A stretch of 64,000 nucleotides of DNA from Escherichia phage vB_EcoM_PHB13. Numbering within the stretch: position 1 is the stretch's first letter; each line of letters begins with the position of its first letter. This document shows positions 2,031 to 58,039 of the stretch, piece by piece. The notes beneath the pieces were generated by a model. It was not told the DNA's origin. It saw only the letters and a list, made by a program, of their open reading frames with translations, and ran no database searches. The translations under genes and the position numbers were made by a program. Location of the stretch: sequence record MK573636; one strand, written 5' to 3'.

Positions 2031-3854
2031 ATGTCTGAATTTTTGCTGTTAGATGATCGCGCTCACTGTCTTAAGAGACCTTCAATGTACATCGGGTCAA
2101 CTACTTATGAATCACATAATCGTTTCCTATTTGGAAAATGGACCAAAGTTTCATACGTTCCCGGTCTAGTTAAAATTATTGATGAAATTATCGACAACTC
2201 TGTAGACGAGGCGATCCGCACTAATTTTGAGTACGCTAATGTTATTAGTGTGGATATAAAAGATAACATTGTGTCAGTAACAGATAATGGTCGCGGTATT
2301 CCGCAACATATTGTTACGACGCCAGAAGGGAAACAGATTCCACAACCAGTTGCTGCATGGACACGAGCTAAAGCAGGGTCTAACTTTGATGATACAAATC
2401 GTGTTACTATGGGTATGAATGGGATCGGAAGCGCGCTCACATCATTTTTCTCGTCCTGGTTTACTGGTGTGACGTGTGACGGAGAGAATGAACTGACCGT
2501 TCAATGTACCAATGGTGCAGAAAATATTAGCTGGTCATCCAAGCCGTCAAAACTGAAAGGAACTAAGGTTACGTTCTGCCCCGATTTCGATCATTTTGAA
2601 GGTATGATCATGTCACAAGAAATTTCAGATGTGATTTGCGACCGAATGTATTCATTGAGTGTAATCTTTCCTAAGATCACGTTTAAATTTAACGGCAAAA
2701 AGATAACCAGCAAGTTCAAGGATTATGCTAAACTATACAATGATGATCCGTTTGTCATCGAGGATAAAAACTTCTCACTTGCCCTAGTTCCTGCGGTCGA
2801 GGGAGAAGGTTTTAAATCAGTATCCTTTGCTAATGGTCTGTTTACCAAAAACGGGGGAACACACGTAGACTACGTGACAGATGATCTTTGTGAAGAGATT
2901 GTAAAACGAATCAAGAAAGAATATAAGGTTGATGTTACTAAAGCTGCGGTTAAGTCTGGATTGACCTGTATTCTTATTGTTCGTGAATTGCCAAACCTCC
3001 GTTTTGATTCACAGACAAAAGAACGATTGACTAATCCAACTGGTGATATCAAGCGTCATATTGATCTTGATTTTAAAAAGCTGGCTAAAGTCATTGCGAA
3101 GAAAGAAAACATTATCATGCCTATTATTGCTGTAGTCCTGGCACGCAAAGAGGCAGCAGATAAAGCGGCAGCGACTAAGGCAGCAAAGGCAGCAAAACGG
3201 GCTAAGGTAGCAAAACACGTTAAAGCTAACCTTATTGGAACTGACGCAGAAACTACCCTGTTTTTGACGGAAGGTGATTCCGCGATCAACTATCTGATCT
3301 CTGTACGTGATCAAGATTTACATGGCGGTTTCCCATTGCGAGGTAAAACTCTTACAACATGGGAACAACCGGAGGCAAAGATCGTTAAGAACGCCGAAAT
3401 TTTTAACATCATGGCTATCACTGGTTTGCAATTTGGTGTTGATGCATTGGAAGTTATGCAATACAAAAATATTGCGATTATGACTGACGCGGATACCGAC
3501 GGGATCGGGTCTATTAAACCTAGTCTGATCTCCTTCTTTGCACGTTGGCCTGAATTGTTCGAAGATGGACGAATCCGGTTTATCAAAACGCCTATTATCA
3601 TTGCTGAACCAAAGAAAGGTGATGATGTTCGATGGTATTATGACCTAGAAGATTTCGAGAACGACCGAGATAATATCAAAGGTTACAACATTCGATATAT
3701 CAAAGGTTTAGCATCGCTCACAGAATCAGACTATCATCGCGTGATCAACGATCCTGTCATGGAGATCATCACGTTACCGGAAAACTATAAAGAGCTATTC
3801 GATTTGCTCTATAGTGAAGATGCAGATCAGCGCAAAATTTGGATGCAATCATAA
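2031..3854 (+). CDS. 39: DNA topoisomerase II large subunit, fused gp39+gp60 equivalent (607 aa)
   Basis: N-terminal GyrB-like ATPase region matches T4 gp39; C-terminal IAIMTDADTDGIGSI...RIWMQS matches T4 gp60; one uninterrupted ORF. Confidence 0.9.
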   Translation: MSEFLLLDDRAHCLKRPSMYIGSTTYESHNRFLFGKWTKVSYVPGLVKIIDEIIDNSVDEAIRTNFEYANVISVDIKDNIVSVTDNGRGIPQHIVTTPEGKQIPQPVAAWTRAKAGSNFDDTNRVTMGMNGIGSALTSFFSSWFTGVTCDGENELTVQCTNGAENISWSSKPSKLKGTKVTFCPDFDHFEGMIMSQEISDVICDRMYSLSVIFPKITFKFNGKKITSKFKDYAKLYNDDPFVIEDKNFSLALVPAVEGEGFKSVSFANGLFTKNGGTHVDYVTDDLCEEIVKRIKKEYKVDVTKAAVKSGLTCILIVRELPNLRFDSQTKERLTNPTGDIKRHIDLDFKKLAKVIAKKENIIMPIIAVVLARKEAADKAAATKAAKAAKRAKVAKHVKANLIGTDAETTLFLTEGDSAINYLISVRDQDLHGGFPLRGKTLTTWEQPEAKIVKNAEIFNIMAITGLQFGVDALEVMQYKNIAIMTDADTDGIGSIKPSLISFFARWPELFEDGRIRFIKTPIIIAEPKKGDDVRWYYDLEDFENDRDNIKGYNIRYIKGLASLTESDYHRVINDPVMEIITLPENYKELFDLLYSEDADQRKIWMQS

Positions 3855-8270: not shown

Positions 8271-8597
8271 ATGGTTGATATGAAAGTTACTTGCGAAAGT
8301 GCACATGTTGAAGTTGAAAGTAGCCAATATTCATTGCGTCCGTCCGGTCGCGTTACTGTGACTATGGATGATGTTGATTTGGTTAATAATGTTAGTGTTG
8401 AAGATATCGTTAATGAGTATGATCATAGCGAACTGCTAGACGCAATTCCTGAACATGTTGTGATCCAGCACGTAGTAAGCAATAATGATCCATCGACTTT
8501 CATTAAAGAATACGGCGCTGATGAAATGCTCGATGAAATTGGCGAAAAGATTGTTATTGCATGGCTTGAAAACAACGGTTATACTGTAGAACAATAA
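8271..8597 (+). CDS. hypothetical acidic protein (108 aa)
   Basis: ORF with GAGGAA RBS upstream. Confidence 0.5.
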   Translation: MVDMKVTCESAHVEVESSQYSLRPSGRVTVTMDDVDLVNNVSVEDIVNEYDHSELLDAIPEHVVIQHVVSNNDPSTFIKEYGADEMLDEIGEKIVIAWLENNGYTVEQ

Positions 8598-8605
8598 TCA
8601 ACATA

Positions 8606-8628
8606 GGCCGCTTTGCGCGGCCTTTCTT
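8606..8628 (+). terminator. rho-independent terminator
   Basis: Hairpin GGCCGC-TTTGC-GCGGCC followed by TTTCTT. Confidence 0.5.
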
Positions 8629-8642
8629 AGAGGGAATACATT

Positions 8643-8936
8643 ATGACGGTCACGGTTATTACCAAATACGACGACGAAAATATGATTTACGGTGACGTGG
8701 TTGTTGTTCACGGTCGTAGCATGAAAGTTACTGGTAATTGTAAAGATGGTGCTATTATTTGTGGTGAATTGGTGAGAACAGTCAATCCTATCACCGACGA
8801 ACAAAAGCGAGTCATTATCAGAAAACTTAAAGACAGTGGATATTGTAACGTCGTGGTGATTCAAGAAAAAATTGAAGTAGGCCACTTATACACAAATCAG
8901 AAAACAATTCCGGTATCAATGGTTAAAGGCGGTTAA
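8643..8936 (+). CDS. hypothetical protein (97 aa)
   Basis: ORF with AGAGGG RBS upstream. Confidence 0.5.
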   Translation: MTVTVITKYDDENMIYGDVVVVHGRSMKVTGNCKDGAIICGELVRTVNPITDEQKRVIIRKLKDSGYCNVVVIQEKIEVGHLYTNQKTIPVSMVKGG

Positions 8937-8938
8937 TA

Positions 8939-9301
8939 ATGCTAGGTCATTCTAAAATAGAAGATTGCTCATTCAGAGCAATGAAAGATGATTTTTCGGT
9001 CCTGTACGCGTCTATCCGAGAGTTGTTTGTAGATTTTAAGCAATTCAGAGAATACAAAGGCGTTAAGATGCGGGAGTGGGTATTCTGGCCTTTCTATATC
9101 ATTACTCTGTTTTCTATGGTATTTTGTTTTGTCGGGATCACTATCGCTAGTTTTGTCACTTGCGTTTTCCTGATTATCAGGTGTATCATGTTTGCTTTGA
9201 TTGCTGCCCCGTTTATTGTTTCAATCCTTCCGTTAAAATGGCTATTGGATTGGGCTGATAAATCTGATAAAGTAAAGAATGTGATTTGTAAGCGTGTATG
9301 A
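8939..9301 (+). CDS. small membrane protein (120 aa)
   Basis: Long hydrophobic stretch (WVFWPFYIITLFSMVFCFVGITIASFVTCVFLII...) predicting 2-3 TM helices. Confidence 0.5.
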   Translation: MLGHSKIEDCSFRAMKDDFSVLYASIRELFVDFKQFREYKGVKMREWVFWPFYIITLFSMVFCFVGITIASFVTCVFLIIRCIMFALIAAPFIVSILPLKWLLDWADKSDKVKNVICKRV

Positions 9302-10673
9302 GGTGAAGATGGATAAAATTAGTCAAATTGTAAACACATTTACTTACCGCAGCCTTGAAAGCATTGTACATAATGAAGCTAAGGAATATGCGATCTATTC
9401 TGCCGAGGAACGCGGGATTCCTCAATTAGTGGATGGGCTTAAACCAGTGCAACGCTTTGTTATGGAGTGCGCACTTCAAAAGAGTAAAGGCGACCGTAAG
9501 AAATTCCGTAAGATGGCAGATATTGGATCTGGTGTTGCTGAGTTGGGTTATCACCACGGGGAAACTAATGCCGTAGAAGCCGGATCACTCATGGCGAATA
9601 CATGGAGCAATAATACTCCACTGCTTGACGGTCAAGGTAACTTCGGATCGCGTTTAGTCCAGAAAGCAGGTGCGGCACGTTATATCTTTGCTCGTGTGCA
9701 TGAAAACTTCTTTAAAATCTATAAAGATATGAATTGCGCACCTAAGCACGAAGATCTGGAACACATCCCGCCAGCATTCTACTTGCCAGTTGTGCCAATG
9801 GTATTGGCTAATGGTATTAGTGGTATTGCTACAGGGTATAAAACTGACATTTTACCGCATTCACTGGAAAGCCTTATTGAATGCACAGAGCTAGCACTTG
9901 CCGGAAAACTGGATAAAGAACCTAGTGTTCAATTCCCAAAATTCACGGGTAAAGTTATCCCGCGAGATGATCGCGATGGTGTGATTCTTGAGGGTACATA
10001 TGAACTAAACGGCAAGACTAAACTGACAATATCAGAAGTTCCTTATAAGTTCGACCGTGAAGAATATGTGGCGGTACTGGATGCGCTGGAAGAAAAAGAT
10101 CTGATTGTATCGTATAATGACCGTTGCTCTAAGGACGGATTCAGATTTGAAGTAACACTGAAACGCGATTATTTCAAAAGCGAAGATGAATCCGCTCGAC
10201 ATGAGCAAATCATGAAGGATTTTAAACTAACGCAGTTAGTAGCCCAGAATATCGTGGTAGTTAATGAACGTGGCTTAGTTGAAGTATTCGAGAAAGCGAG
10301 CGATCTGATCCGTCGATTCGTCGAAATCCGATTAGGGTATGTCGATAAACGCATTGAATTGATGCAAGCGGAAACGCTGGAAGCATACAATTATGCAATG
10401 GCTAAAGCCAAATTTATCGACCTTGTAATTAAGGGCGAAATCGAGCTACAGGGAAAGAAAAAGGCCGAGGTAATGCAATCCATCAATGGACATGAAAAAC
10501 TGCGTCCATACGCCGATAAGCTAGTTTCTATGCCATTGTATAGCGTTACTCAAGAAGAGTATGATCGACTGGTCAAAGATGCCGAGAAACATCATAGTGA
10601 ATATGAGTATTGGACAAAGACGACCGCAATGAAGGAATATAAGAAAGATCTTAAAGAACTTAAGAAGGGTTGA
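9294..10673 (+). CDS. 52: DNA topoisomerase II medium subunit (GyrA-like)
   Basis: GLKPVQRF...DIGSGVAELGYHHGE...LLDGQGNFGSR...RYIFARV matches T4 gp52; alternative start ATG 9309. Confidence 0.9.
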   Translation: MYEVKMDKISQIVNTFTYRSLESIVHNEAKEYAIYSAEERGIPQLVDGLKPVQRFVMECALQKSKGDRKKFRKMADIGSGVAELGYHHGETNAVEAGSLMANTWSNNTPLLDGQGNFGSRLVQKAGAARYIFARVHENFFKIYKDMNCAPKHEDLEHIPPAFYLPVVPMVLANGISGIATGYKTDILPHSLESLIECTELALAGKLDKEPSVQFPKFTGKVIPRDDRDGVILEGTYELNGKTKLTISEVPYKFDREEYVAVLDALEEKDLIVSYNDRCSKDGFRFEVTLKRDYFKSEDESARHEQIMKDFKLTQLVAQNIVVVNERGLVEVFEKASDLIRRFVEIRLGYVDKRIELMQAETLEAYNYAMAKAKFIDLVIKGEIELQGKKKAEVMQSINGHEKLRPYADKLVSMPLYSVTQEEYDRLVKDAEKHHSEYEYWTKTTAMKEYKKDLKELKKG

Positions 10674-35748: not shown

Positions 35749-35916
35749 ATGACCAAATTAAAATGTGTTGCTGTAGATTTTGAGCTAGCTGATAGCTTTG
35801 TTGTCGGTGATGTATATGATGCTCGACATGATGGGACTTGCTACTACGTTGAGGATGAATACGGCGTAGAATGGGCTATTCTTCCTGATGATAAATGTTT
35901 TGAGGTTGTCGGATAA
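35749..35916 (+). CDS. hypothetical protein (55 aa)
   Basis: ATG 35749 (MTKLKCVAVDF) after GTGAGGA RBS. Confidence 0.5.
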   Translation: MTKLKCVAVDFELADSFVVGDVYDARHDGTCYYVEDEYGVEWAILPDDKCFEVVG

Positions 35917-36089
35917 TGGCTACTGTATGGTTATTGATTGCAATCAGCAATTCAATGTATAATTACGGAAATATGTCAAGCATTGAGTTTGCAACAAAGC
36001 AGGATTGCGTTAAAGCTCGCGAGGTTATCCGCGAAGACAATAAACGCTTTATGAATCTGTACTGTGTTGAAAAGCAGAAGGTGAACTAA
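35916..36089 (+). CDS. small protein (57 aa), tandem paralogue A
   Basis: MATVWLLIAISNSMYNYG...SIEFATKQDC...CVEKQ; TAATG overlap with neighbours; not in the ORF track (below 60 aa). Confidence 0.5.
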   Translation: MATVWLLIAISNSMYNYGNMSSIEFATKQDCVKAREVIREDNKRFMNLYCVEKQKVN

Positions 36090-36256
36090 TGGCTACAATA
36101 TGGTTATTGCTTTCCGTTAGCGTAGGCGTATATAATAAAGGAACTGTTACCAGCGTAGAGTTTTCATCACATCAAAATTGTTTTGAAGCTGTGCAGGAAT
36201 TGCAGCAGGATAGCGAAATAAACAGAAATACTAAGTTCTTTTGTGTTAAAAAGTGA
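36089..36256 (+). CDS. small protein (55 aa), tandem paralogue B
   Basis: MATIWLLLSVSVGVYNKG...SVEFSSHQNC...CVKK; clearly similar to the preceding ORF. Confidence 0.5.
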   Translation: MATIWLLLSVSVGVYNKGTVTSVEFSSHQNCFEAVQELQQDSEINRNTKFFCVKK

Positions 36257-47565: not shown

Positions 47566-47594
47566 TTGACAGGGGATCACGTATCCCCTATACT
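47566..47594 (+). promoter_or_regulatory. early promoter with stem-loop (PeSL-like, GGGGATC family)
   Basis: TTGACA 47566-47571, stem GGGGAT-CACGT-ATCCCC, TATACT 47589-47594; conserved leader and AGGAGAATCAAAA-ATG. Confidence 0.6.
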
Positions 47595-47637: not shown

Positions 47638-47949
47638 ATGAAATACATCGTAACGCTGCCAATGATTGACTTCGACGGAACCATGAACACCCAGAAGACC
47701 ATGAGCGCGGAGAACCAACTGAAAAACGCTACCCTGATTCGTGAAGTTCGCAAGGCACTGGCAAAAGAATTTAACACCAAAATTCATTCTGTAACTGGCG
47801 AACGTTTCGCGGATCATCTTGATATCAATATCAAACCAGTGCGCAACGGTGTTATCTCTGTAACAACCAACCGCCCACATGCTGACGCTGATAATCTGAC
47901 CGCTCGCGCAGAAGATGTAATTATGACCGTTATCATGGAAAAACTTTAA
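47638..47949 (+). CDS. hypothetical protein (103 aa)
   Basis: ORF after the cassette; shares A.R.VR.A.AKEFN.K with the 50954 ORF. Confidence 0.55.
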   Translation: MKYIVTLPMIDFDGTMNTQKTMSAENQLKNATLIREVRKALAKEFNTKIHSVTGERFADHLDINIKPVRNGVISVTTNRPHADADNLTARAEDVIMTVIMEKL

Positions 47950-47958
47950 AAAAAGTTG

Positions 47959-47988
47959 TTGACAGGGGAGGTTAAACTCCCCTATAAT
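47959..47988 (+). promoter_or_regulatory. early promoter with stem-loop (PeSL-like)
   Basis: TTGACA 47959-47964, stem GGGGAG-GTTAAA-CTCCCC, TATAAT 47983-47988. Confidence 0.6.
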
Positions 47989-48022
47989 ACACACATACCG
48001 AAACGAACTAGGAGAATCAATT

Positions 48023-48786: not shown

Positions 48787-49095
48787 ATGGAACAAACTAA
48801 GCTATTTGTCGCGGAACCTTTTGTAAGAGACAATAAAAATCTGGCTAAAACAATCATTTTGTATTCGGATTGGATCTTTTATATCGATGGTAATTTAGAC
48901 GTATATTGTCGCACAGCTCCAACTGATTCGTTTTATATCGAAGAAAACGACACTCATAATCATTGGTATGATGGAAACGACAAAACCGAACTAGCTGTTG
49001 TCCTAGCGTCAGACGTAGAACCTGAAAACGCGGACAAAGTAGCAGACAAATTTATGAAGTACGCATATAAAGATAAAAATGAAGATGAAGAATAA
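48787..49095 (+). CDS. H-x-H-W family paralogue 2 (102 aa)
   Basis: ATG 48787; ...WIFYIDGNLDVY...DTHNHWYDGNDKTELAVVLASDV... Confidence 0.55.
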   Translation: MEQTKLFVAEPFVRDNKNLAKTIILYSDWIFYIDGNLDVYCRTAPTDSFYIEENDTHNHWYDGNDKTELAVVLASDVEPENADKVADKFMKYAYKDKNEDEE

Positions 49096-49102
49096 AAAGT
49101 TG

Positions 49103-49131
49103 TTGACAGGGGATCACCGATCCCCTATAAT
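49103..49131 (+). promoter_or_regulatory. early promoter with stem-loop (PeSL-like, GGGGATC family)
   Basis: TTGACA 49103-49108, stem GGGGATC-ACC-GATCCCC, TATAAT 49126-49131. Confidence 0.6.
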
Positions 49132-49165
49132 ACACACATACCAACGAGATATAGGAGAATCAAAA

Positions 49166-49333
49166 ATGTTCCAGACTAAAGCAGAATGCGAAGCATACAT
49201 TGTAGCAAACCACGGTGAAGACTACCTGAAATTCGATATCGTAGTAGCACAGAAGATCACCGGAATGGTTGCAAAATATCTGGGTGTTAAAGAAGGTTAC
49301 TATCCTAGCAACGCACCAGAAATTAACAAATAA
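49166..49333 (+). CDS. small protein (55 aa), copy 1 of a duplicated gene
   Basis: MFQTKAECEAYIVANHGEDYLKFDIVVAQKITGMVAKYLGVKEGYYPSNAPEINK; near-identical to 52424-52591. Confidence 0.6.
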   Translation: MFQTKAECEAYIVANHGEDYLKFDIVVAQKITGMVAKYLGVKEGYYPSNAPEINK

Positions 49334-49336
49334 TAG

Positions 49337-49371
49337 TTGACAATGATTAAAGGGAGTAGTAAGATACTCCC
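49337..49371 (+). promoter_or_regulatory. early promoter with stem-loop (PeSL-like, GGGAGTA family)
   Basis: TTGACA 49337-49342, TAAGAT 49360-49365 within GGGAGTAGTAAGATACTCCC. Confidence 0.6.
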
Positions 49372-49397
49372 ATCAAGACAACAAACGGAGAATCAAA

Positions 49398-49577
49398 ATG
49401 AAAGCTATCGAAGTTCAGAAGTACATGGAAATCATCGTTGAAAGTAAAGCACATTTAGTGTTGACTACTCACGTAGGATATGATAAAAATGTGCATATGC
49501 TGGTAGACAACATCGGCTGGATGAAGTTTAATCCTAACGAGAACGTACAAGCTCAAGAAATGACCATCCCTTTCTAA
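49398..49577 (+). CDS. hypothetical protein (59 aa)
   Basis: MKAIEVQKYMEIIVESKAHLVLTTHVGYDK...; not in the ORF track. Confidence 0.45.
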   Translation: MKAIEVQKYMEIIVESKAHLVLTTHVGYDKNVHMLVDNIGWMKFNPNENVQAQEMTIPF

Positions 49578-49589
49578 GAGGAATATATT

Positions 49590-49868
49590 ATGATGCGAAT
49601 TACTGCAACGCTGGATAAGACACACAAAGAAAGATTTTTCGGTATGATCTTAAAAACGCCGATTTTCGATAATTACCTTTATGTTGACTATAACGGTCAC
49701 ATTAGCTATAAATGTAAAAATGATATTCGTGATTCCTTTGGTGATAAATCACAAGCCGATATTCACGATCATTGGTGGAACCATGACGAACCTTTACGGG
49801 TTATCGCAGTTGATGTAAAAACAACAAAAGAAGCTGATAAGGTAGTGAATGATTATGAGCAAATTTAA
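49590..49868 (+). CDS. H-x-H-W family paralogue 3 (92 aa)
   Basis: ...NYLYVDYNGHISY...DIHDHWWNHDEPLRVIAVDV... Confidence 0.55.
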   Translation: MMRITATLDKTHKERFFGMILKTPIFDNYLYVDYNGHISYKCKNDIRDSFGDKSQADIHDHWWNHDEPLRVIAVDVKTTKEADKVVNDYEQI

Positions 49869-50064
49869 AGATTATAAAGCATATCAACAGATCTTGCGAG
49901 TATACGAACCAGAGTTCGCCGAAAAGATGATGGAAGATGCATCAAAATGCCCGTCCTTTTCTGGAAACAAAAACCATTATTCTACTGGTATTGTATCATG
50001 GAAAGAAACCGCATATACTCAACAATGGATAGATGTGTTTTCAAAAACTCTTGATTGGTGTTAA
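49855..50064 (+). CDS. small protein, MSKFKDY family copy 1
   Basis: MSKFKDYKAYQQI...MMEDASKC...; tandem paralogue of the next ORF. Confidence 0.5.
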   Translation: MSKFKDYKAYQQILRVYEPEFAEKMMEDASKCPSFSGNKNHYSTGIVSWKETAYTQQWIDVFSKTLDWC

Positions 50065-50066
50065 TT

Positions 50067-50282
50067 ATGAGTAAATTTAAAGATTATCGAGCATATAAAG
50101 CGATCTGCGATATATTCGATGAAAAGACCGCTCATGCAATGATGGAAGATGCAGAACAATATGAATCATTCGTCAATTCCAAAGATTGCACAGTAAACGA
50201 GGTTGTGTGCTGGAAAGATACAAAGTATGAAGAAAAATGGATTACTGTGTATTACGGAGAACTAGAATATGAAATTAACTAA
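50067..50282 (+). CDS. small protein, MSKFKDY family copy 2
   Basis: MSKFKDYRAYKAI...MMEDAEQY... Confidence 0.5.
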   Translation: MSKFKDYRAYKAICDIFDEKTAHAMMEDAEQYESFVNSKDCTVNEVVCWKDTKYEEKWITVYYGELEYEIN

Positions 50283-50589
50283 AAAGATTTTCCCAGAATT
50301 GCGTAACTGTCTGTTACTGGTTACTGAATATAAACCTTATACGATCTACTTGTATGTTGATGAAAATCTGAAAATCCGTTACTATGATTATACGTCTCCA
50401 GTAATGAGATCATTTGCTCACGCGATAGCAAACAATTGTATGAATCATAATCATTGGGTAAGTGATAATGATCATGATGCGTCAGAAGTTGTAGTGATCG
50501 CATGGAATCTATCACCAGCGGAAGCAGATCAAGCACGCATTAAGCATTATGCGAAAAACAATTGGTTTGACCTTATAAGTGAGGACTAA
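50269..50589 (+). CDS. H-x-H-W family paralogue 4 (106 aa)
   Basis: ...YTIYLYVDENLKIRYYDY...NHNHWVSDNDHDASEVVVIAWNL... Confidence 0.55.
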   Translation: MKLTKKIFPELRNCLLLVTEYKPYTIYLYVDENLKIRYYDYTSPVMRSFAHAIANNCMNHNHWVSDNDHDASEVVVIAWNLSPAEADQARIKHYAKNNWFDLISED

Positions 50590-50593
50590 TATT

Positions 50594-50872
50594 ATGTTCA
50601 AAGTAGGTGATAAGTTTATTCTTAGTCGTGATATTCTCCCTAATCTGAAAGGTTGTATCATCAATCCTAGTAAAAATTCATGGTTTTATCTGTTTATCGA
50701 CGACAAACTGAATGTACGCGCCGAATATAAAGAAGGTCTTCGTACTGGTCTAGGTTTCTTTCACGATCATGATCATAGCCATTGGCTAAACGGTGGATTC
50801 GAAGCAACGGTGCTAGCGGTTGATGTGACTTACACGAACATCATAGAAAAATATCAAAAAATTATTTTATAA
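50594..50872 (+). CDS. H-x-H-W family paralogue 5 (92 aa)
   Basis: ATG 50594 after GAGGAC; ...WFYLFIDDKLNV...HDHDHSHWLNGGFEATVLAVDV... Confidence 0.55.
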   Translation: MFKVGDKFILSRDILPNLKGCIINPSKNSWFYLFIDDKLNVRAEYKEGLRTGLGFFHDHDHSHWLNGGFEATVLAVDVTYTNIIEKYQKIIL

Positions 50873-50878
50873 AAAGTG

Positions 50879-50913
50879 TTGACATAAGATCGGGTGTATA
50901 GCATAATACACCC
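50879..50913 (+). promoter_or_regulatory. early promoter with stem-loop (PeSL-like, GGGTGTAT family)
   Basis: TTGACA 50879-50884, 17-nt spacer, CATAAT 50902-50907 in loop of GGGTGTAT...ATACACCC. Confidence 0.6.
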
Positions 50914-50953
50914 ATCGAAACGAGATACACTTTCTAACTAGGAGAATCAAATT

Positions 50954-51241
50954 ATGGCATACATCACTATCACTCTGAAAGTTAACAAATTTGCTCACGC
51001 TGCACACGAAACCGATAATGCAATCCGTAACAACAAGTTTGCACGTCTGGTACGCGATGCAGTAGCTAAAGAGTTCAACTTCAAATTTGCAGATGGTAAA
51101 GTTATCACTAAATGGACTCATGACGGCGAAACTAAAGTAGAACTTGCTGACAACTTCGCAAATCAGGAATATGCACACCGCCGCATCAATGAAATCATCA
51201 GCGATGAACTCTACTACGGAGTACAGGAAGGTTTGTTTTAA
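50954..51241 (+). CDS. hypothetical protein (95 aa)
   Basis: ORF after the cassette; weak similarity to the 47638 ORF. Confidence 0.55.
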   Translation: MAYITITLKVNKFAHAAHETDNAIRNNKFARLVRDAVAKEFNFKFADGKVITKWTHDGETKVELADNFANQEYAHRRINEIISDELYYGVQEGLF

Positions 51242-51245
51242 TATA

Positions 51246-51267
51246 GGGGGCGTTAAGCCCCTTTTAA
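51246..51267 (+). terminator. rho-independent terminator
   Basis: Hairpin GGGGC-GTTAA-GCCCC followed by TTTT. Confidence 0.55.
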
Positions 51268-51290
51268 TCTATCTGAATGAGGATATCACT

Positions 51291-51599
51291 ATGAAAAATC
51301 TTGTAGTTGAATTTACCCGCGAGAATTTACCACAATTTCGCAATTCTCTGCTTAAACTAGAGAACAGTAATTATGATGTATATTTTTACATCACCGAAGA
51401 TCTAGAGATCCTTTACGCTGATTACCCAGGTCCGATCCGTACCTTCGAAACCGCATCAAAATATAAAAATGTGCACGGTCATGAGCACTGGTTACGAGAA
51501 AACCCAGGTCGCAAGAAAGCACGCGTTAAAGTGTTGGCGATTGACATAACACCAGCATACGCCGACCGGATTGCACAGAATGATTATTTGTCTAAATGA
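51291..51599 (+). CDS. H-x-H-W family paralogue 6 (102 aa)
   Basis: ATG 51291; ...YDVYFYITEDLEILYADY...HGHEHWLRENPGRKKARVKVLAIDI... Confidence 0.55.
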   Translation: MKNLVVEFTRENLPQFRNSLLKLENSNYDVYFYITEDLEILYADYPGPIRTFETASKYKNVHGHEHWLRENPGRKKARVKVLAIDITPAYADRIAQNDYLSK

Positions 51600-51606
51600 T
51601 TTCATT

Positions 51607-51633
51607 AGCCGACCTTAGTGTCGGCTTTTTTAT
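51607..51633 (+). terminator. rho-independent terminator
   Basis: Hairpin AGCCGAC...TCGGCT followed by TTTTTTATT. Confidence 0.6.
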
Positions 51634-51657
51634 TGCATAAAATTTAAAAAAAAGGCA

Positions 51658-51686
51658 TTGACACCAGATCACGCCTATAGCATAAT
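51658..51686 (+). promoter_or_regulatory. early promoter (degenerate GGGTGTAT-family cassette)
   Basis: TTGACA 51658-51663, 17-nt spacer, CATAAT 51681-51686; right arm ATACACCC kept, left arm degenerate. Confidence 0.5.
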
Positions 51687-51726
51687 ACACCCATCGAAAC
51701 GAGATACCACTTAGGAGAATCAAACA

Positions 51727-51996
51727 ATGGCGCTGACTAAAACCACTACCAACTTTGCAAAACGTCACGGCTTCGACCTTGAAATCAATAGCTTTAACGA
51801 TTACACCCTTCTGTGTGTATATGAAATCGAAAATGATTGCGAGTGGATGTTCAGCTATCGCGTAAACGAAGACGGATCTTTCACTTGGAACGGAAATATC
51901 TATCTTGCACAGGAAGTAAAAGAAGAACTTCCGGCGACTATCAAAGATGAGAAACATTTACGTCAAGTTTTAAAATTTATTTCTGAAAATATCTAA
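51727..51996 (+). CDS. hypothetical protein (89 aa)
   Basis: ORF after TTAGGAGAATCAAACA-ATG. Confidence 0.55.
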   Translation: MALTKTTTNFAKRHGFDLEINSFNDYTLLCVYEIENDCEWMFSYRVNEDGSFTWNGNIYLAQEVKEELPATIKDEKHLRQVLKFISENI

Positions 51997-52003
51997 AAAG
52001 TTG

Positions 52004-52032
52004 TTGACACCAAAGTAAGAACATAGCATAAT
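52004..52032 (+). promoter_or_regulatory. early promoter (degenerate GGGTGTAT-family cassette)
   Basis: TTGACA 52004-52009, 17-nt spacer, CATAAT 52027-52032, then ATACACCC. Confidence 0.5.
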
Positions 52033-52065
52033 ACACCCATACCGAAACGAACTGGAGAATCAAAA

Positions 52066-52347
52066 ATGAAATTCATCAAAGCAACCGAAATCCTGAAAAA
52101 CAAAGAAGCATACATCGGAAACATCGTTGGTATGAACATTCGCGGCGCTGGTAGCCAGTGGACCAAACTGGTTGATGTTAAAGCTAAAGGCGATAAAATT
52201 GAGTTCACTGTAAAAATGCTTACTCATAACGCACATATGGGTATCAAGACAAAAACGATGGCAGCAGATAAAAGCATCAACTATCAGGATCTGGGTGATT
52301 GGCTGAACTGGTGCAAAATGCACAACATCGAAACTAATCACGAATAA
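52066..52347 (+). CDS. hypothetical protein (93 aa)
   Basis: ORF after GGAGAATCAAAA-ATG. Confidence 0.55.
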   Translation: MKFIKATEILKNKEAYIGNIVGMNIRGAGSQWTKLVDVKAKGDKIEFTVKMLTHNAHMGIKTKTMAADKSINYQDLGDWLNWCKMHNIETNHE

Positions 52348-52361
52348 TTTTAAAAAAGTTG

Positions 52362-52390
52362 TTGACGGGGATCGGGAGATCCCCTATAAT
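52362..52390 (+). promoter_or_regulatory. early promoter with stem-loop (PeSL-like, GGGGATC family)
   Basis: TTGACG 52362-52367, stem GGGGATC-GGGA-GATCCCC, TATAAT 52385-52390. Confidence 0.6.
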
Positions 52391-52423
52391 ACACACATAC
52401 CGAAACGAAATAGGAGAATCAAA

Positions 52424-52591
52424 ATGTTCGAGACTAAAGCAGCATGTGAAGCATATATCATTGAAACCCACGGCGAAGATTATCTGAAATTTGACATTGT
52501 AGTAGCACAGAAGATTGTAGGGATGGTTGCGAAATACCTCGGAGTTAAAGAAGGTTACTATCCAAGCAACGCACCGGAAATTAACAAATAA
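52424..52591 (+). CDS. small protein (55 aa), copy 2 of a duplicated gene
   Basis: MFETKAACEAYIIETHGEDYLKFDIVVAQKIVGMVAKYLGVKEGYYPSNAPEINK; about 90% amino-acid identity to 49166-49333. Confidence 0.6.
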   Translation: MFETKAACEAYIIETHGEDYLKFDIVVAQKIVGMVAKYLGVKEGYYPSNAPEINK

Positions 52592-52606
52592 TTTTTATAA
52601 AAAGTG

Positions 52607-52635
52607 TTGACAGGGGAGACACCCTCCCCTATAAT
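52607..52635 (+). promoter_or_regulatory. early promoter with stem-loop (PeSL-like)
   Basis: TTGACA 52607-52612, stem GGGGAG-ACACC-CTCCCC, TATAAT 52630-52635. Confidence 0.6.
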
Positions 52636-52675
52636 ACAACCATCAAGACGAGATACCACTTAGGAGAATCAAACA

Positions 52676-52927
52676 ATGGCTAACATCGAAACCGCAAAGA
52701 AAATCGCTAAAGACCTGAACGTTAAAGGCTTCCGTAAACTGAAATTACAGCGTGTACGCTACACCATCGGCAAACAGTGCTCTTTCATGAGCGAAGAAGT
52801 TGCTAACAGCCTCATTGATAACCTGATTGCGGCTGGCTGGGAAGTTGCGGATCTGAAAACTTGCCGCGAACTGGCTAACAAAGGTCTTTTAGATTCTGTT
52901 ACTATAAAACCAATGGGGGCAGCGTGA
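52676..52927 (+). CDS. hypothetical protein (83 aa), first gene of a coupled operon
   Basis: MANIETAKKIAKDL...; first 16 coding nt identical to the 54805 ORF; stop overlaps the next start (GTGA). Confidence 0.55.
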   Translation: MANIETAKKIAKDLNVKGFRKLKLQRVRYTIGKQCSFMSEEVANSLIDNLIAAGWEVADLKTCRELANKGLLDSVTIKPMGAA

Positions 52928-53169
52928 AAAGAAAATTAATTAAACGAAATAAGGAATTTTTGAATAACTGCATTAAGGTTGCTAATGGTTGGCCTTTGTT
53001 CCTCTTCCTTTATGATTGGTATTCTAAACAATCGGTAGAGGAAACACGACACTATAAGAAGATCAGAAAAGAATCATATACAAAACAAGGCCGCATTAAC
53101 GGACTTTACTTAATGTGGCACGGCAAAGAACCTTCTAAAATCTGTGTTGGATTAAAGGGGCGTATATGA
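52924..53169 (+). CDS. hypothetical basic protein (81 aa)
   Basis: GTG start overlapping the previous stop; its stop overlaps the next start (ATGA). Confidence 0.45.
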   Translation: MKRKLIKRNKEFLNNCIKVANGWPLFLFLYDWYSKQSVEETRHYKKIRKESYTKQGRINGLYLMWHGKEPSKICVGLKGRI

Positions 53170-53882
53170 AACAAAAATTAATATTCTGCAACTTTGACGG
53201 ATCGGGGATAATGGGGCTAGAATGGGCTAAAGCAGGTCATAAGGTGATCTGCTTTAATGCAGATGATGCCGACCACGGCACATACAAAAAGTATAATACC
53301 CGATTTGAACATCCAAACATTACATATGTAAACACATGGATTGATTTGGATTGGCTGGAAAGAGCAATGGACCTTGAATGGGGAAAACCAGATATTATCT
53401 TTGCATTCCCACCGTGCACCAATTTAGCTGTTAGTGGCGCTGCACACTTTGAACGAAAGAAACGAGAACAAGGACCATTAATTCAAGTTCATGATGTAAG
53501 GGCAGCTAAAATAACCGCTTATTTGGGCGAATGGTTAGAAGTTCCCTACATGATAGAGAATCCTGTAAGCGTTATCTCTAGCATGTGGCGTAAGCCTGAT
53601 TACATGTTCCACCCGTGGGAATATGGCGGTTATTTGCCGGAATATGATATACATCCTACGTTTCCTGAGTATATTGCCTCCCGTGATATGTACCCGAAAA
53701 AGACTTGCTTATGGACGGGACAAGGTTTTATAATGCCAGAAAAGAAACCTATACCGATTAATAAAGGGTACAGTAAACAGCATTCTAAGCTAGGCGGGAA
53801 AGGAACCAGAACAAAGACTATCAGGTCACTTACCCCGCGAGGATTCGCAAAGGCAGTATTTGAAGCCAATAAGGATCTATGA
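53166..53882 (+). CDS. cytosine-C5 methyltransferase-like catalytic core protein (238 aa)
   Basis: Motif I-like FCNFDGSGIMG, motif IV-like IIFAFPPCTNLAVSGA (Pro-Cys) and motif VI-like YMIENPVSV in DNA C5-MTase order; too short for a target-recognition domain. Confidence 0.5.
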   Translation: MKQKLIFCNFDGSGIMGLEWAKAGHKVICFNADDADHGTYKKYNTRFEHPNITYVNTWIDLDWLERAMDLEWGKPDIIFAFPPCTNLAVSGAAHFERKKREQGPLIQVHDVRAAKITAYLGEWLEVPYMIENPVSVISSMWRKPDYMFHPWEYGGYLPEYDIHPTFPEYIASRDMYPKKTCLWTGQGFIMPEKKPIPINKGYSKQHSKLGGKGTRTKTIRSLTPRGFAKAVFEANKDL

Positions 53883-54738: not shown

Positions 54739-54768
54739 TTGACAGGGGGATCGGTGATCCCCTATAAT
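54739..54768 (+). promoter_or_regulatory. early promoter with stem-loop (PeSL-like, GGGGATC family)
   Basis: TTGACA 54739-54744, stem GGGGGATC-GGT-GATCCCC, TATAAT 54763-54768. Confidence 0.6.
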
Positions 54769-54804
54769 GCAAACATACCGAAACGAACTACTAAGGAGTA
54801 TCAA

Positions 54805-55017
54805 ATGGCTAACATCGAAATCATCATTACCGACGTAACTTATGACCGCATTAACGAAATCGGTACTGCTTTGCTAGAAGATGGAACAACTCGCACCATC
54901 AACTACGCAGAATACGTTGAAATGCGCGGTTGTATTAAACGAGTAGGAAAATATATCCTGATTGAAAAAGACTATTCAGGATACACATTAGAGCAATTGC
55001 TCGATGGTGCATTATAA
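54805..55017 (+). CDS. hypothetical protein (70 aa)
   Basis: MANIEIIITDVTYDRINEIG... after TAAGGAGTATCAA-ATG. Confidence 0.55.
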   Translation: MANIEIIITDVTYDRINEIGTALLEDGTTRTINYAEYVEMRGCIKRVGKYILIEKDYSGYTLEQLLDGAL

Positions 55018-55084: not shown

Positions 55085-57136
55085 ATGTTTAACTTAGAAA
55101 TCGACGATCTAATGATTGAATCTTTCGAGAAATGGCTGTTGACGGAAGAGGAAGAAAACTTTGGCAGTATTGCTCCGGTACAGTGCTTAAAGCCTAAGCA
55201 GAATCCTAAACAGCTTTTTGCAGTACAGACACGCGATAAAGATGTGATTGTCCGTCTTTGTAACTTCACCAACAAAACACCTAAAATCATTCGTATGGGT
55301 GACAAGACCGCACATGTTGTACTGTGCGAAATGAACAAAAGCGGTCGTATTGTACAGCTTAAAAATGGTCTAGGCGATAACCCGATTGCAGTTATGGCAA
55401 GTGCTTTTGATGTGGTTATGGAAACAGCCCGTAAAGCGCAATTAGACGCTGTTATGTTCCGTTTTAACGTATCCCGCATGAAAGGTAAGACCGAACTGGT
55501 TAAGCGCGTTATAGAGCGTTTGGTGCGTCGTACACCGAAGTTTGAAGTATTCCAGCAGGAAGTAATGACCAGCAAAAAGATCGCTTTAGTTGTTGTCAAG
55601 CGTCGAGGTATGGCGATTGATAAGATTAAAGGGATTAAACTTGATGAATCCTTGTTCACTAAAGTAGAAAGTGATTTAGGTGATCGCTGGGTATCTAAAG
55701 CTACTGGCGAATCTCTGACTAAAGATGAAGCATATGCGGCTAGTCTTGTGTCAGAAGAAGAACGAAACGCGGAAGCAGAACAACGCGTAGCGGCTAAATC
55801 TCGTTTGACTAAAGAAGAAATGCTGAAAACTCAAGCGACCTATAACAGCGACTATGTGAATCATCCAGAAAAAATTAATCTTAAACCGGAAGAAGATATC
55901 ACCGAAGCAGAACCTAAGAAACAGTTTAATACTCTGATTGACCGTCAAGCCTTAGAACGTTCAACCGCCCGTTCTCTGAATGACTGGACAAGTGATATTA
56001 TCACTCGCTATGGTTTCATGCGTACTATTTTTGAAAGCGAAGCCGATGCAAAATACGCAGTAAGCGAACTGGTAAAAGTTCAGGACCAATATGATCCGTT
56101 GTCTGCGGAAGTTATCGCAGCATCAATCAAACGCTTAAAAGAAATCATGAGCGAGGAAGTATTCGAAAACAAGATCACTGCGTTGGCAATGGATCGAGTA
56201 GACCAGTCTATGCCAGCAGATGTAAAAGCTGAAATGCTGCGTAGTCATATCACACAGATTAAAACCGATGCCCTTCGTAATGTTGCCTCCGGTATGTTTG
56301 AAGCAATTGCAAGTAACATGGGTGAAATGATGGCAGATATTGATCTTGACCTACCAGGCGCGGAAGGTTTTGTGTTGAGCGAATATGCGGATGCAGCATA
56401 CATCAATATGAACAACTTCCTAACCGATCGTAAGCTGGATGAGTTCGAAGGGATCGCTGACCCAGAAGAATTGGTCAAGATGTGCGACGCACTGGATAAT
56501 GCCTTCGCTAACTATGGCGTTAAACTTGATCCGGGTACTATTCTGTATCGTGGTATGGACTTCCGGTCTCAAATGTGGGAAACTGCACGTAAGCAAAAAG
56601 CGTTTTACTTTAAAAACTATGTGAGCACTTCCCTTGCACCTAACATTTTTGGCGGCTGGAATGCAAACGTGGCTAGTGCCGTTGCTGGTGTTGATTCTAT
56701 GGCTGGCTCTCGCGGTGAAGGTGGCGCGAATGTTGCTTTCTCCATTGCTGGCGCGGAAAACATCCCTGTATTGCCAGTAGGTAACAAAGCATTTGCTTAC
56801 AAAGAATGCGAGATTTTACTTCCTCGCGGTGTTGTGTTATCCTTTGATACGGTAACTCGTGCTACGGCATCGACGGATTCACAAGAAACATATTACATTG
56901 AGGCACATATTATGAACAAAAGTGAACTGGCAGCATTACAAGAATCTGGCGAAATGATCGCGGATGGTGATGCATTCATCCGTGAAGGTGTTGTTAAACC
57001 TGCTTCTGACCTGTCTTTCTCCAGATTCATTACAGAAGCTAAAACCGAACGTAAGAAAGCAGATAAGGCAACTCTACGTCAGCTTATCGCTGATCTGGTG
57101 TCTGTAGACGCAATGCCAGATAAATTTAAAATGTAA
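55085..57136 (+). CDS. alt: Alt ADP-ribosyltransferase (683 aa)
   Basis: Length equals T4 Alt (682 aa); catalytic region LYRG...YVSTSL...ECEILLPRG (R / STS / E-x-E) and C-terminus ...PDKFKM match T4 Alt (...PLKFVM). Confidence 0.85.
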   Translation: MFNLEIDDLMIESFEKWLLTEEEENFGSIAPVQCLKPKQNPKQLFAVQTRDKDVIVRLCNFTNKTPKIIRMGDKTAHVVLCEMNKSGRIVQLKNGLGDNPIAVMASAFDVVMETARKAQLDAVMFRFNVSRMKGKTELVKRVIERLVRRTPKFEVFQQEVMTSKKIALVVVKRRGMAIDKIKGIKLDESLFTKVESDLGDRWVSKATGESLTKDEAYAASLVSEEERNAEAEQRVAAKSRLTKEEMLKTQATYNSDYVNHPEKINLKPEEDITEAEPKKQFNTLIDRQALERSTARSLNDWTSDIITRYGFMRTIFESEADAKYAVSELVKVQDQYDPLSAEVIAASIKRLKEIMSEEVFENKITALAMDRVDQSMPADVKAEMLRSHITQIKTDALRNVASGMFEAIASNMGEMMADIDLDLPGAEGFVLSEYADAAYINMNNFLTDRKLDEFEGIADPEELVKMCDALDNAFANYGVKLDPGTILYRGMDFRSQMWETARKQKAFYFKNYVSTSLAPNIFGGWNANVASAVAGVDSMAGSRGEGGANVAFSIAGAENIPVLPVGNKAFAYKECEILLPRGVVLSFDTVTRATASTDSQETYYIEAHIMNKSELAALQESGEMIADGDAFIREGVVKPASDLSFSRFITEAKTERKKADKATLRQLIADLVSVDAMPDKFKM

Positions 57137-57214: not shown

Positions 57215-58039
57215 ATGTTCAAGAAATTACAGGATTTTCGTCTTTCAGAAGAATCACGCGAATCAATGATGGAACGTATGGATAATTACATCGAAACATA
57301 TGACATTGAGGGGATTAATGGTTACATGATCACTGAGATGATCAGCGATCAGATTAACTTTGATGATTATGTGAAGGTTATCCGCTTCCTTGAGCGTGAG
57401 ACACAAGATTATGGATTTGTCAAGAAAATCATTAATGTGATGTATGAAGTACACTCCGAAGACTTTGGAGATAATGTATTCAAACATTACAAACATAACA
57501 ACATAACCCCAGCAGAATATAATGCAATCTGTGATTATGTGTCTGAACAATACGAATGGGTAAATGGTGCTCTCTTAGGGGAAGAAGACATGACCGATGA
57601 GATATCAGAGATTGTTGATTTGATGGATTGCGCCATGGATAAAACCGAAAAGTTAAACGGTACTCTTTATCGCGGTCAACATCTTGACATTCAGACAATA
57701 GAGCGTATTATTGAAGATAAGGAATTTACCTTTAAAAACTTTGTGTCAACCAGCATGACACCGATCATCTTTGGAGGCTGGCTATCAAACAGCACTAGCC
57801 TTTATTGTGAGAATCGATATGAATCCATGACCGGAAAGATGCAACATTCTTGTAATGTATCGTGGGTAATTGACGTAAAAGATCATAAAGGTTTTGTTGT
57901 TGGGTCAATTGCATGGAATCCTTGCGAATGTGAAGTAATTTTACCGCGCGGGACTTGCGTCAAGGTAAACGACGTAGTAGAATCTTTCGGTGATGAGAAT
58001 CGTAGACAATTTACAATTTTCGGTGAGGTGACTAAATGA
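57215..58039 (+). CDS. second, shorter ADP-ribosyltransferase (Alt paralogue, 274 aa)
   Basis: LYRGQ...FTFKNFVSTSMTPIIFGGW...CECEVILPRG parallels the Alt catalytic region (FYFKNYVSTSLAPNIFGGW...ECEILLPRG). Confidence 0.7.
   Translation: MFKKLQDFRLSEESRESMMERMDNYIETYDIEGINGYMITEMISDQINFDDYVKVIRFLERETQDYGFVKKIINVMYEVHSEDFGDNVFKHYKHNNITPAEYNAICDYVSEQYEWVNGALLGEEDMTDEISEIVDLMDCAMDKTEKLNGTLYRGQHLDIQTIERIIEDKEFTFKNFVSTSMTPIIFGGWLSNSTSLYCENRYESMTGKMQHSCNVSWVIDVKDHKGFVVGSIAWNPCECEVILPRGTCVKVNDVVESFGDENRRQFTIFGEVTK

Follow-up and report, generated by a model that had tools for sequence, protein, structure and literature searches.

In the coliphages RB49 and phi1, Arbiol, Comeau, Kutateladze, Adamia and Krisch (2010, Genome Biol Evol 2:140; PMC2839356) described cassettes composed of an ORFan and a PeSL (promoter-early stem-loop), i.e., a sigma-70 promoter together with a stem-loop; the work was extended by Comeau et al. 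(2014; PMC4122927). RB49 PeSL206/205, when cloned, proved to be a very strong promoter (about 13,000 Miller units as a lacZ fusion), and terminator activity was measured for PeSL211/210 only (PMC2839356). ORFan192, which adjoins ORF191, served as the model insertion/deletion, and ORFs 191-194 are carried by a sequenced RB49 mini-circle whose crossover lies in PeSL190/191 and PeSL194/195 (PMC2839356). Both papers document excision, in the form of mini-circles, and insertion/deletion differences, not re-insertion; the terms "paralog" and gene "duplication" are absent from their text, and the paralogy of ORF205 and ORF191 is unmentioned (PMC2839356, PMC4122927).

The DNA analyzed here (the window) is a stretch of 64,000 nucleotides from Escherichia phage vB_EcoM_PHB13 (MK573636). 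It shows 93-96% identity to 58 Krischvirus genomes and evidently represents a Krischvirus, a T4-type coliphage like RB49. Two of its loci, termed A and B, map to RB49p205 and RB49p191, respectively, and both are part of the published PeSL system. They have in common with it the loci (PeSL206/205 with ORF205 and PeSL192/191 with ORF191), the anatomy (A-rich stretch, TTGACA-N17-TATAAT, G(n)-loop-C(n) hairpin between the boxes, Shine-Dalgarno and ATG) and the setting, a hyperplastic region from gene 30 (ligase) to alt (PMC2839356, PMC4122927). In the window, ligase/HNH genes lie on one side of the two cassettes and alt genes on the other. The pair described in the earlier note is real, and a known system already accounts for it.

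Two copies of a 55-codon gene and their promoter cassettes

The features of the two loci are collected in Table 1. The earlier note had described two ORFs with near-identical proteins, about 3.3 kb apart and each preceded by the same GGGGATC...GATCCCC promoter cassette. This description is accurate: both proteins are 55 aa long and share 89% identity (6 amino-acid differences), the ORFs are 84.5% identical at the nucleotide level (26 differences), the start codons are 3,258 bp apart and the same stem occurs in both promoters. The copy A protein is identical to that of RB49 ORF205. In self-BLASTN, the pair forms the longest internal repeat of the window (49094-49334 versus 52353-52592; 242 columns, 84.7%, E = 4e-69), and all remaining repeats are promoter cassettes of 50-120 nt. 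The alignment that had been proposed as a check on the boundaries thus spans both promoter and ORF, from the A-rich stretch 5' of the -35 box to one base past the stop codon. No third copy was found in the window by tblastn, and no phage record has the gene in more than two places.

Table 1. Features of the two loci and of the block between them (window positions)
Feature	Position	Strand	Description
PeSL 5' of copy A	49094..49165	+	ortholog of RB49 PeSL206/205, by alignment
Parts of the copy A PeSL	A-rich stretch; -35 TTGACA 49103-49108; hairpin GGGGATCACCGATCCCC 49109-49125; -10 TATAAT 49126-49131; leader; Shine-Dalgarno AGGAG 49153-49157	+	
Copy A	49166..49333	+	55-aa ORFan; ortholog of RB49 ORF205 (RB49p205, NP_891776); PHROG 8009 at E = 1.2e-38
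PeSL 3' of copy A (205/204)	49334..49397	+	TTGACA at 49337; hairpin GGGAGTA...TACTCCC overlaps -10 box; -15.2 kcal/mol, z = -5.0
Intervening block	49398..52347	+	11 small early ORFs, orthologs of RB49 ORFs 204-197, 194 and 193; five PeSL-type promoters of its own
PeSL 5' of copy B	52353..52423	+	RB49 PeSL192/191, by alignment
Parts of the copy B PeSL	-35 TTGACG 52362-52367; hairpin GGGGATCGGGAGATCCCC 52367-52384; -10 TATAAT 52385-52390	+	
Copy B	52424..52591	+	55-aa ORFan; ortholog of RB49 ORF191 (RB49p191, NP_891762); PHROG 8009 at E = 6.8e-38
PeSL 3' of copy B (191/190)	52592..52675	+	TTGACA-GGGGAGacaccCTCCCC-TATAAT 52607-52635; -16.6 kcal/mol, z = -3.9

The identity between A and B exceeds that of either copy to any outside homolog (83% at most), and the two are therefore best regarded as true paralogs, not as products of convergence. 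A larger segmental duplication was rejected: the genes beside A (ORF206, ORF204) are unrelated to those beside B (ORF193, ORF190), so that the duplication comprises one cassette.

The promoter of copy A (TTGACA-GGGGATCaccGATCCCC-TATAAT, 49103-49131) is a near-consensus sigma-70 promoter matching 12/12 positions, and that of copy B (TTGAC-GGGGATCgggaGATCCCC-TATAAT, 52362-52390) matches 11/12 (TTGACG); in each, a hairpin lies within the spacer. An A-rich stretch precedes the -35 box (...GAATAAAAAGTTG-TTGACA at copy A and ...GAATAATTTTAAAAAAGTTG-TTGAC at copy B), the stems are of the G(n)-loop-C(n) type with 7-8 bp, and the AGGAG Shine-Dalgarno sequence is found 8-9 nt 5' of the ATG in both cassettes. 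Relative to shuffled sequences, the hairpins are stable (-13.9 kcal/mol, z = -3.3 for copy A; -14.9 kcal/mol, z = -2.9 for copy B). A terminator scan did not flag either of them; TATAAT follows the hairpins, not a T run. The motif TTGAC-N15-20-TATAAT occurs 14 times in the window versus 0.67 expected by chance. Both cassettes align base for base with their RB49 counterparts, and the PeSL of copy B abuts the ORF193 stop codon directly, as in phi1, with ORF192 absent. A PeSL also borders each ORF on its 3' side; the one beyond copy B corresponds to RB49 PeSL191/190, which took part in the crossover of the sequenced mini-circle with ORFs 191-194 (PMC2839356).

Both copies match the profile of PHROG 8009, a family of unknown function, over their full length (residues 1-55 of 55); the only other PHROG was a marginal match to 485, and Pfam contains no family for the protein. 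Two word-indexed searches yielded 17 relatives, all of them small unnamed proteins of enterobacterial phages or prophages. Homologs with 61-83% identity occur in Swiduovirus-type siphophages, in a Salmonella genome and in a phage-like element beside ghrA/ycdX-like genes, and those with 31-44% in Sashavirus-type phages. Three long repeat proteins recovered by an exhaustive phmmer search (PB1, PPC and FG-GAP repeats; E = 5e-7 to 3e-4) were rejected as homologs, since they represent three unrelated families and their scores are sums of repeated weak matches. The best AlphaFold2 model has a pLDDT of 92.8 (62-72 for the other four); with Foldseek, nothing better than E = 4.5 was found in the PDB and only family members in BFVD. 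Literature searches for the RB49p205/RB49p191 proteins under their locus tags and accession numbers returned nothing. From its position and promoter, we infer that the protein is an immediate-early accessory protein.

In a Logan contig, an ORF194 homolog is located directly 5' of a homolog of the 55-aa protein. This single linkage is a weak hint only that locus B may be the older one, because ORF194 homologs are so widespread (431 phage records of many types).

Age and origin of the pair

Copies A and B differ by 19 synonymous and 7 non-synonymous changes. The resulting pS is 0.56 (bootstrap 95% CI 0.37-0.78), which places the synonymous sites near saturation, and dS, based on about 34 synonymous sites, reaches about 1.0 (bootstrap CI from 0.5 up to saturation), compared to 0.06 between each copy and its RB49 ortholog. 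The dN/dS ratio of 0.05 shows that both copies are under purifying selection. In RB49, phi1 and JSE the two copies occupy orthologous positions, and across 10 phages all A copies cluster together, as do all B copies. The survey of copy number in relatives suggested by the earlier note gave two copies, at conserved positions, in 51 of the 58 Krischvirus records. Together, the divergence of the copies relative to that of their orthologs, the conserved positions and the copy number indicate that the A/B split predates the radiation of the genus, although conversion between the copies blurs both this date and the 5' boundary. The genes are thus old and conserved, and the duplication is not a recent one, contrary to what had been proposed.

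The promoters require separate consideration. The shared cassette had been taken as direct evidence that the promoter was copied along with the ORF, which does not hold: hairpin promoters with the GGGGATC...GATCCCC stem also occur at 47566 and 54739, before unrelated ORFs, and the copy B cassette is at least as near to the one at 47959, which precedes an unrelated 59-aa ORF (85-87%), as to that of copy A (81-86%). Conservation of the promoter region is far above that of the synonymous sites of the ORF. The similarity of the two promoters reflects the consensus of the PeSL family, along with selection and cassette-to-cassette exchange, rather than how old the copy is. On the 5' side of the ATG, the only A/B-specific similarity is a stretch of about 12 nt around the Shine-Dalgarno sequence (ATAGGAGAATCAAAA), and co-duplication of the promoter is thus not demonstrated. 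In JSE, copy B carries a hairpin of the window's A type; hairpins are thus exchanged independently of the ORF. The broader proposal, that promoter-plus-ORF units are copied within the genome, fits in part: the paralogy and the PeSLs located 5' and 3' of each copy form the arrangement expected if such units move or are copied by recombination between cassettes, but copying of the promoter together with its gene does not follow.

We consider it very probable that the two loci represent an old paralogous PeSL-ORFan pair (RB49 ORF205/ORF191) in the Krischvirus hyperplastic region, produced by PeSL-mediated copying before the genomes diverged. Each cassette comprises the A-rich stretch, a consensus early promoter of the sigma-70 type whose spacer holds a G(n)-loop-C(n) hairpin, the conserved leader with its Shine-Dalgarno sequence and the 55-codon gene, with the next PeSL starting immediately past the stop codon. 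The PeSLs, scattered through the region, provide 60-100 bp of shared sequence, and the phage's own homologous recombination can promote exchange between any two of them, thereby excising, deleting or replacing the ORFs in between and presumably re-inserting them. To give the second copy, a unit of one ORF with a PeSL at either end would have been transferred to another PeSL, through either the re-insertion of a mini-circle or an unequal exchange involving two copies of the genome. This duplication would have occurred long before the divergence of present Krischvirus genomes; both copies have since been held under strong purifying selection as early genes, whose expression is predicted.

Alternatively, unequal exchange between PeSLs flanking a single copy could have produced a tandem duplication, into which 3 kb of cassettes were inserted later, with no re-insertion of a distant mini-circle. 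Tandem or near-tandem paralogs do occur in the region (49849/50067, 41%; 50269/51291, 36%; 49590/50594, 30%), and the slot just 5' of copy B demonstrably accepts insertions, being empty in the window and phi1 and occupied by ORF192 in RB49 and by another ORF in JSE. Still, neither adjacent copies nor any tandem or intermediate state appears in the genomes examined, the copies are more than 3 kb apart at every two-copy locus read, and many later insertions would be required, compared to one step for re-insertion. We regard this order of events as possible though rather unlikely; since it leads to the same end product as re-insertion, sequence data do not separate the two.

It is quite improbable that diverged alleles were instead acquired from other phages at different times and at different PeSLs, with no duplication within the genome. 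The family is mobile, as evident from the range of its homologs, and a dS of about 1 far exceeds divergence within the genus. Copy B retains the outgroup states E3, E14, T15 and V32 and is nearer to the P0003 homolog (83%) than copy A is (78%). On the other hand, A and B are mutual nearest relatives with their full length in common, the APEINK tail is common only to A, B and P0003, both share the ATAGGAG Shine-Dalgarno context, and searches of 5.8 billion clustered proteins and of 1.84 billion representatives revealed no donor lineage that is nearer to either copy than the other copy is. Two acquisitions would still be PeSL-mediated insertions, and thus would change the history and not the mechanism.

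A recent copying of promoter and ORF as a single block, although suggested by the continuous alignment over both and by their identical stems, deserves almost no credence in view of the synonymous divergence, the conservation of both loci in the genus, the other cassettes with the same stem or equal similarity and the hairpin exchange in JSE.

Recombination between the copies in related phages

Our preferred reading of an old, PeSL-bounded pair is supported by signs of ongoing recombination at the same loci. In phage Cognac, only one gene, a chimera, lies between ORF206 and ORF190, and its leader changes from A-type to B-type just before the ATG. FL04 carries the same deletion, with the crossover at the -35 box and hairpin; since this site differs from that in Cognac, the event is independent. 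Both phages lost the intervening block by separate A-by-B crossovers that removed a 3,258-bp unit, i.e., the block and one copy of the repeat. Brandy, JK32 and UPWr_E1 share one gene order, in which precisely the B ORF is missing, and the junction, as read in Brandy, is a chimeric PeSL. In MIZ4, PeSL193/191 is fused to the PeSL equivalent to window position 54739. In Cognac, FL04 and MIZ4, the junctions of the deletions thus fall inside PeSLs, as in the Brandy chimera.

Shorter exchanges are also apparent. Brandy copy A contains six consecutive B-type sites (ORF nt 51-75), which form a B-type conversion tract, and the A and B states at sites 141 and 153 are swapped in different phages. The copies thus still exchange short tracts, and they form a direct repeat of 240 bp through which the intervening 3.3-kb block is occasionally deleted.

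A bolder possibility, which we consider unlikely, is that the pair is the surviving trace of a circle re-inserted at a second PeSL and that the 240-bp repeat serves as a switch for shedding and perhaps regaining the block. If so, about 11 early accessory genes could be shed in one 3.3-kb block and possibly regained via a 3.26-kb circle, and genomes with and without the block would be maintained, as in the two independent deletions of Cognac and FL04.

Comparison with known systems

For these loci in RB49 and phi1, published work already covers the type of cassette, how strong its promoter is and how it contributes to the shuffling of small early genes, such that the present results have little import beyond confirmation and their added value is modest. 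Unlike the excision and insertion/deletion differences of the PeSL papers, the occurrence of one cassette at two sites is relevant to the insertion step that had been proposed: a PeSL-bounded gene in two places supports this half of the model, which those papers left undocumented. The genomes with the A-by-B deletions and the conversion tracts were all sequenced after 2010. These later-sequenced relatives show the repeat at work: the block was deleted in two independent events, one cassette was precisely removed and tracts were converted; the crossover zones of the natural deletions and chimeric PeSLs resemble the published ones (the A-rich region, and the -10 box to the ATG). For annotation, the pair carries a warning, as promoter-cassette similarity is family-wide here and is no evidence of a recent copy.

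The morons of lambdoid phages (Hendrix et al. 2000) and the gene cassettes of integrons likewise consist of a single accessory gene with its own expression signals, placed between existing genes. The PeSL authors themselves drew both parallels. In PeSL cassettes, unlike in either of these, the shared promoter cassette itself is the source of homology. The movement of morons is attributed to illegitimate recombination, their regulatory sequences not being the vehicle, and integrons employ an integrase and attC sites; to our knowledge, PeSL cassettes have no dedicated recombinase. Deletions between short direct repeats in non-essential regions of T4 (Mosig et al. 1998; Singer et al. 1982, cited in PMC2839356) likewise arise by homologous exchange and eliminate blocks of small early genes that are non-essential, a situation matched by Cognac, FL04 and MIZ4. 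Unlike those short repeats, the A/B repeat spans 240 bp and includes a whole functional gene, so that deletion regenerates an intact chimeric copy.

The two copies and their product

The earlier note had pointed to two ORFs with near-identical 55-residue products, and both are present exactly where it placed them, with proteins that differ at six positions (89% identity) and ORF DNA that is 84.5% identical. The similarity was also claimed to cover the promoter, and it does: in a self-comparison of the whole window the longest internal repeat aligns 49094-49334 with 52353-52592 (242 aligned columns, 84.7%, E = 4e-69), beginning in an A-rich stretch upstream of the -35 box and stopping one base past the stop codon. 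All remaining internal repeats are promoter cassettes of 50-120 nt, and a whole-window search for a third copy of the gene found none. Further paralog pairs in the window share 30-41% protein identity and are much older, several of them in tandem; duplication is widespread in this region.

Positions of copies A and B and of the older paralog pairs
Feature	Position	Strand	Remarks
Copy A	49166-49333	+	55 residues; RB49 ORF205 (RB49p205)
Copy B	52424-52591	+	55 residues; RB49 ORF191 (RB49p191)
Older paralog pair	49849-50064 / 50067-50282		Inside A-B block
Older paralog pair	50269-50589 / 51291-51599		Inside A-B block
Older paralog pair	49590-49868 / 50594-50872		Inside A-B block
Older paralog pair	35916-36089 / 36089-36256		
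Older paralog pair	55085-57136 / 57215-58039		Two Alt-like ADP-ribosyltransferases

The 55-aa protein belongs to PHROG 8009, a family without assigned function, and no Pfam family was found for it. AlphaFold2 predicts a small alpha/beta unit, confidently in only one of five models, for which Foldseek searches of PDB and BFVD found no informative structural neighbour; matches to long repeat proteins were rejected as relatives. From the promoter type and neighbourhood, we infer a putative immediate-early accessory protein. Two metagenome proteins (P0004 and P0005) match copy A at their start before passing into unrelated sequence, in one case a histidine-kinase ATPase domain fragment; both are probably products of frameshifted or chimeric assembly, not real fusions.

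Age of the A/B split

Krischviruses are RB49-like T4-type coliphages, and the 6 kb around the copies align over their full length with Krischvirus genomes at 93-96% identity (58 matching records). The duplication had been described as recent, a view that the divergence contradicts. The 26 nucleotide differences between A and B comprise 19 synonymous and 7 non-synonymous changes (pS 0.56, bootstrap 95% CI 0.37-0.78; dN 0.055; dN/dS 0.05), and dS is about 1.0, as opposed to 0.06 between each copy and its own RB49 ortholog. Identity is 65% at third codon positions versus 94% at first and second positions. Among ten phages compared, the A copies all group together and the B copies likewise, and with tblastn 51 of the 58 Krischvirus records show two places (121 places in 70 records in total, 12 of the latter being single-copy non-Krischvirus phages). 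Given the high dS, the separate A and B clusters and the two-copy records, the split is older than the diversification of the genus, and coding function has been maintained in A as well as in B. Since the copies exchange short tracts, dS underestimates their age.

Promoter cassettes and exchange among relatives

The claim that the same promoter cassette precedes both ORFs holds for the stem, which is common to both, but cassettes of this kind are not confined to these two genes. Promoters of the promoter-early stem-loop (PeSL) type with a GGGGATC...GATCCCC hairpin are found also at 47566 and 54739, before unrelated ORFs. In all-against-all alignments the B cassette is 81% identical to that of A, 80% to that at 54739 and 85% to that at 47959, which serves an unrelated 59-aa ORF (BLASTN of 47945-48020 against 52348-52422, 86.8%). 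In phage JSE, copy B bears the hairpin that the window has at copy A. Upstream similarity exclusive to A and B is confined to ~12 nt at the Shine-Dalgarno sequence, the rest being family-wide, so that the point where the original copy began on its 5' side cannot be located. Function and exchange among PeSLs account for the conservation of the cassette, which far exceeds that of neutral sites in the ORF. As a whole, the observation in the earlier note was confirmed and its interpretation was right in part.

The window, MIZ4 and phi1 share the form GGGGATC-ACC-GATCCCC for the hairpin of PeSL206/205, before copy A (49109-49125), and JK32 keeps the ACC loop with two changes in the stem. RB49, JSE, Brandy, UPWr_E1 and Cognac have the exact reverse complement of the window's form, GGGGATC-GGT-GATCCCC, produced either by hairpin inversion or by conversion from the PeSL at 54739, where the GGT loop occurs together with a linked TATAATG variant. 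GATC, the Dam site, lies in one or both stem arms of four PeSL hairpins (47566, 49103, 52362 and 54739), and a DNA methyltransferase gene is located in the same region (53166-53882).

Cognac and FL04 possess one 55-codon gene between ORF206 and ORF190, the entire 3.3-kb block being missing. In Cognac, an A-type hairpin and leader switch to B-type immediately before the ATG, and in FL04 the switch falls at the -35/hairpin boundary; as the switch points differ, the deletions are two independent A-by-B exchanges. In Brandy, JK32 and UPWr_E1, ORF193 is followed directly by ORF190 and exactly the B ORF is missing; the Brandy junction is a chimeric PeSL that combines the 193/191 promoter with the 191/190 leader. 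In MIZ4, PeSL193/191 is fused to the PeSL at window position 54739, which removes B, ORF190, ORF189.1, the methyltransferase, ORF188 and ORF187. Shorter traces are also evident: in Brandy copy A, six sites in a row (ORF nt 51-75) are B-type, the A/B states at positions 141 and 153 are swapped in different phages, and the single Cognac gene carries an A-type patch close to its 3' end. Such tracts and swapped sites show that copies A and B exchange short tracts.

The first 16 nt of ORF190 (52676-52691) recur as the first 16 nt (54803-54818) of the ORF that follows the PeSL at 54739 (ATGGCTAACATCGAAA, encoding MANIE); the two ORFs are otherwise unrelated, so that cassette homology reaches into coding sequence. 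Of the two PeSLs fused in MIZ4, 193/191 lies upstream of copy B, and the one at 54739 precedes the ORF with this common start. The slot immediately upstream of copy B (52348-52362) is polymorphic: empty in the window and phi1, it holds ORF192 (477 nt) in RB49 (9710-10326) and another ORF (312 nt) in JSE (8542-8979).

Origin and the published PeSL system

A and B are mutually closest (89%), and every outside relative is more distant, the nearest being a 54-aa protein from a Logan contig (78% to copy A, 83% to copy B), Swiduovirus-type siphophage homologs (63-71%), a Salmonella homolog (57-61%) and Sashavirus-type homologs (31-44%). This pattern speaks for duplication inside the lineage rather than two imports, though not decisively, because only 55 residues are available and conversion is ongoing. 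Such a duplication may have involved either a re-inserted circle or unequal exchange with later insertions, between which the sequence does not discriminate.

On the Logan contig (SRR5584643, 3723-4165), this nearest homolog of the 55-aa gene comes after a homolog of the window's ORF194 (41% identity), whose stop codon overlaps its start codon; the pair lies where a phage-like element adjoins ghrA/ycdX-like host genes. Homologs of ORF194 are spread over 431 phage records of diverse types; ORF194 was flagged as associated with islands, plasmids or integrons (Arbiol et al., PMC2839356). The 55-aa family is also present in unrelated Escherichia and Salmonella siphophages, Swiduovirus swi2 (3001-3156) and Sashavirus Sasha (2992-3180), where the genes have their own sigma-70-like promoter, lie beside terminase genes and lack a PeSL hairpin.

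PeSLs were described in RB49 and phi1 (Arbiol et al. 2010, PMC2839356), at ~50 per genome and mostly in hyperplastic regions, and recombination between them was proposed to cause excision, deletion, replacement or insertion of intervening genes. In the same work, cloned PeSL206/205, the ortholog of the copy A promoter, gave about 13,000 Miller units, the model insertion/deletion was ORFan192, the neighbour of ORF191, and a sequenced mini-circle enclosed ORFs 191-194, with its crossover in PeSL190/191 and PeSL194/195. The cassettes of copies A and B can be aligned base by base with PeSL206/205 and PeSL192/191 of RB49; ORF192 is missing, as in phi1, and the A-rich start of the ORF191 cassette directly follows the ORF193 stop codon. 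In RB49, RB49p205 and RB49p191 both lie inside a run of small hypothetical genes extending from the DNA ligase/HNH to the methyltransferase/alt genes. Our catalogue of the window comprises 26 promoter-plus-leader units of PeSL type (~20 clear PeSLs), with hairpins of -11 to -17 kcal/mol, in most cases considerably more stable than shuffled controls. The two cassettes fall within a system already in the literature for the same loci. ORF205 and ORF191 are paralogs, a relationship that goes unmentioned in both PeSL papers and lends minor support to the insertion step of the PeSL model.
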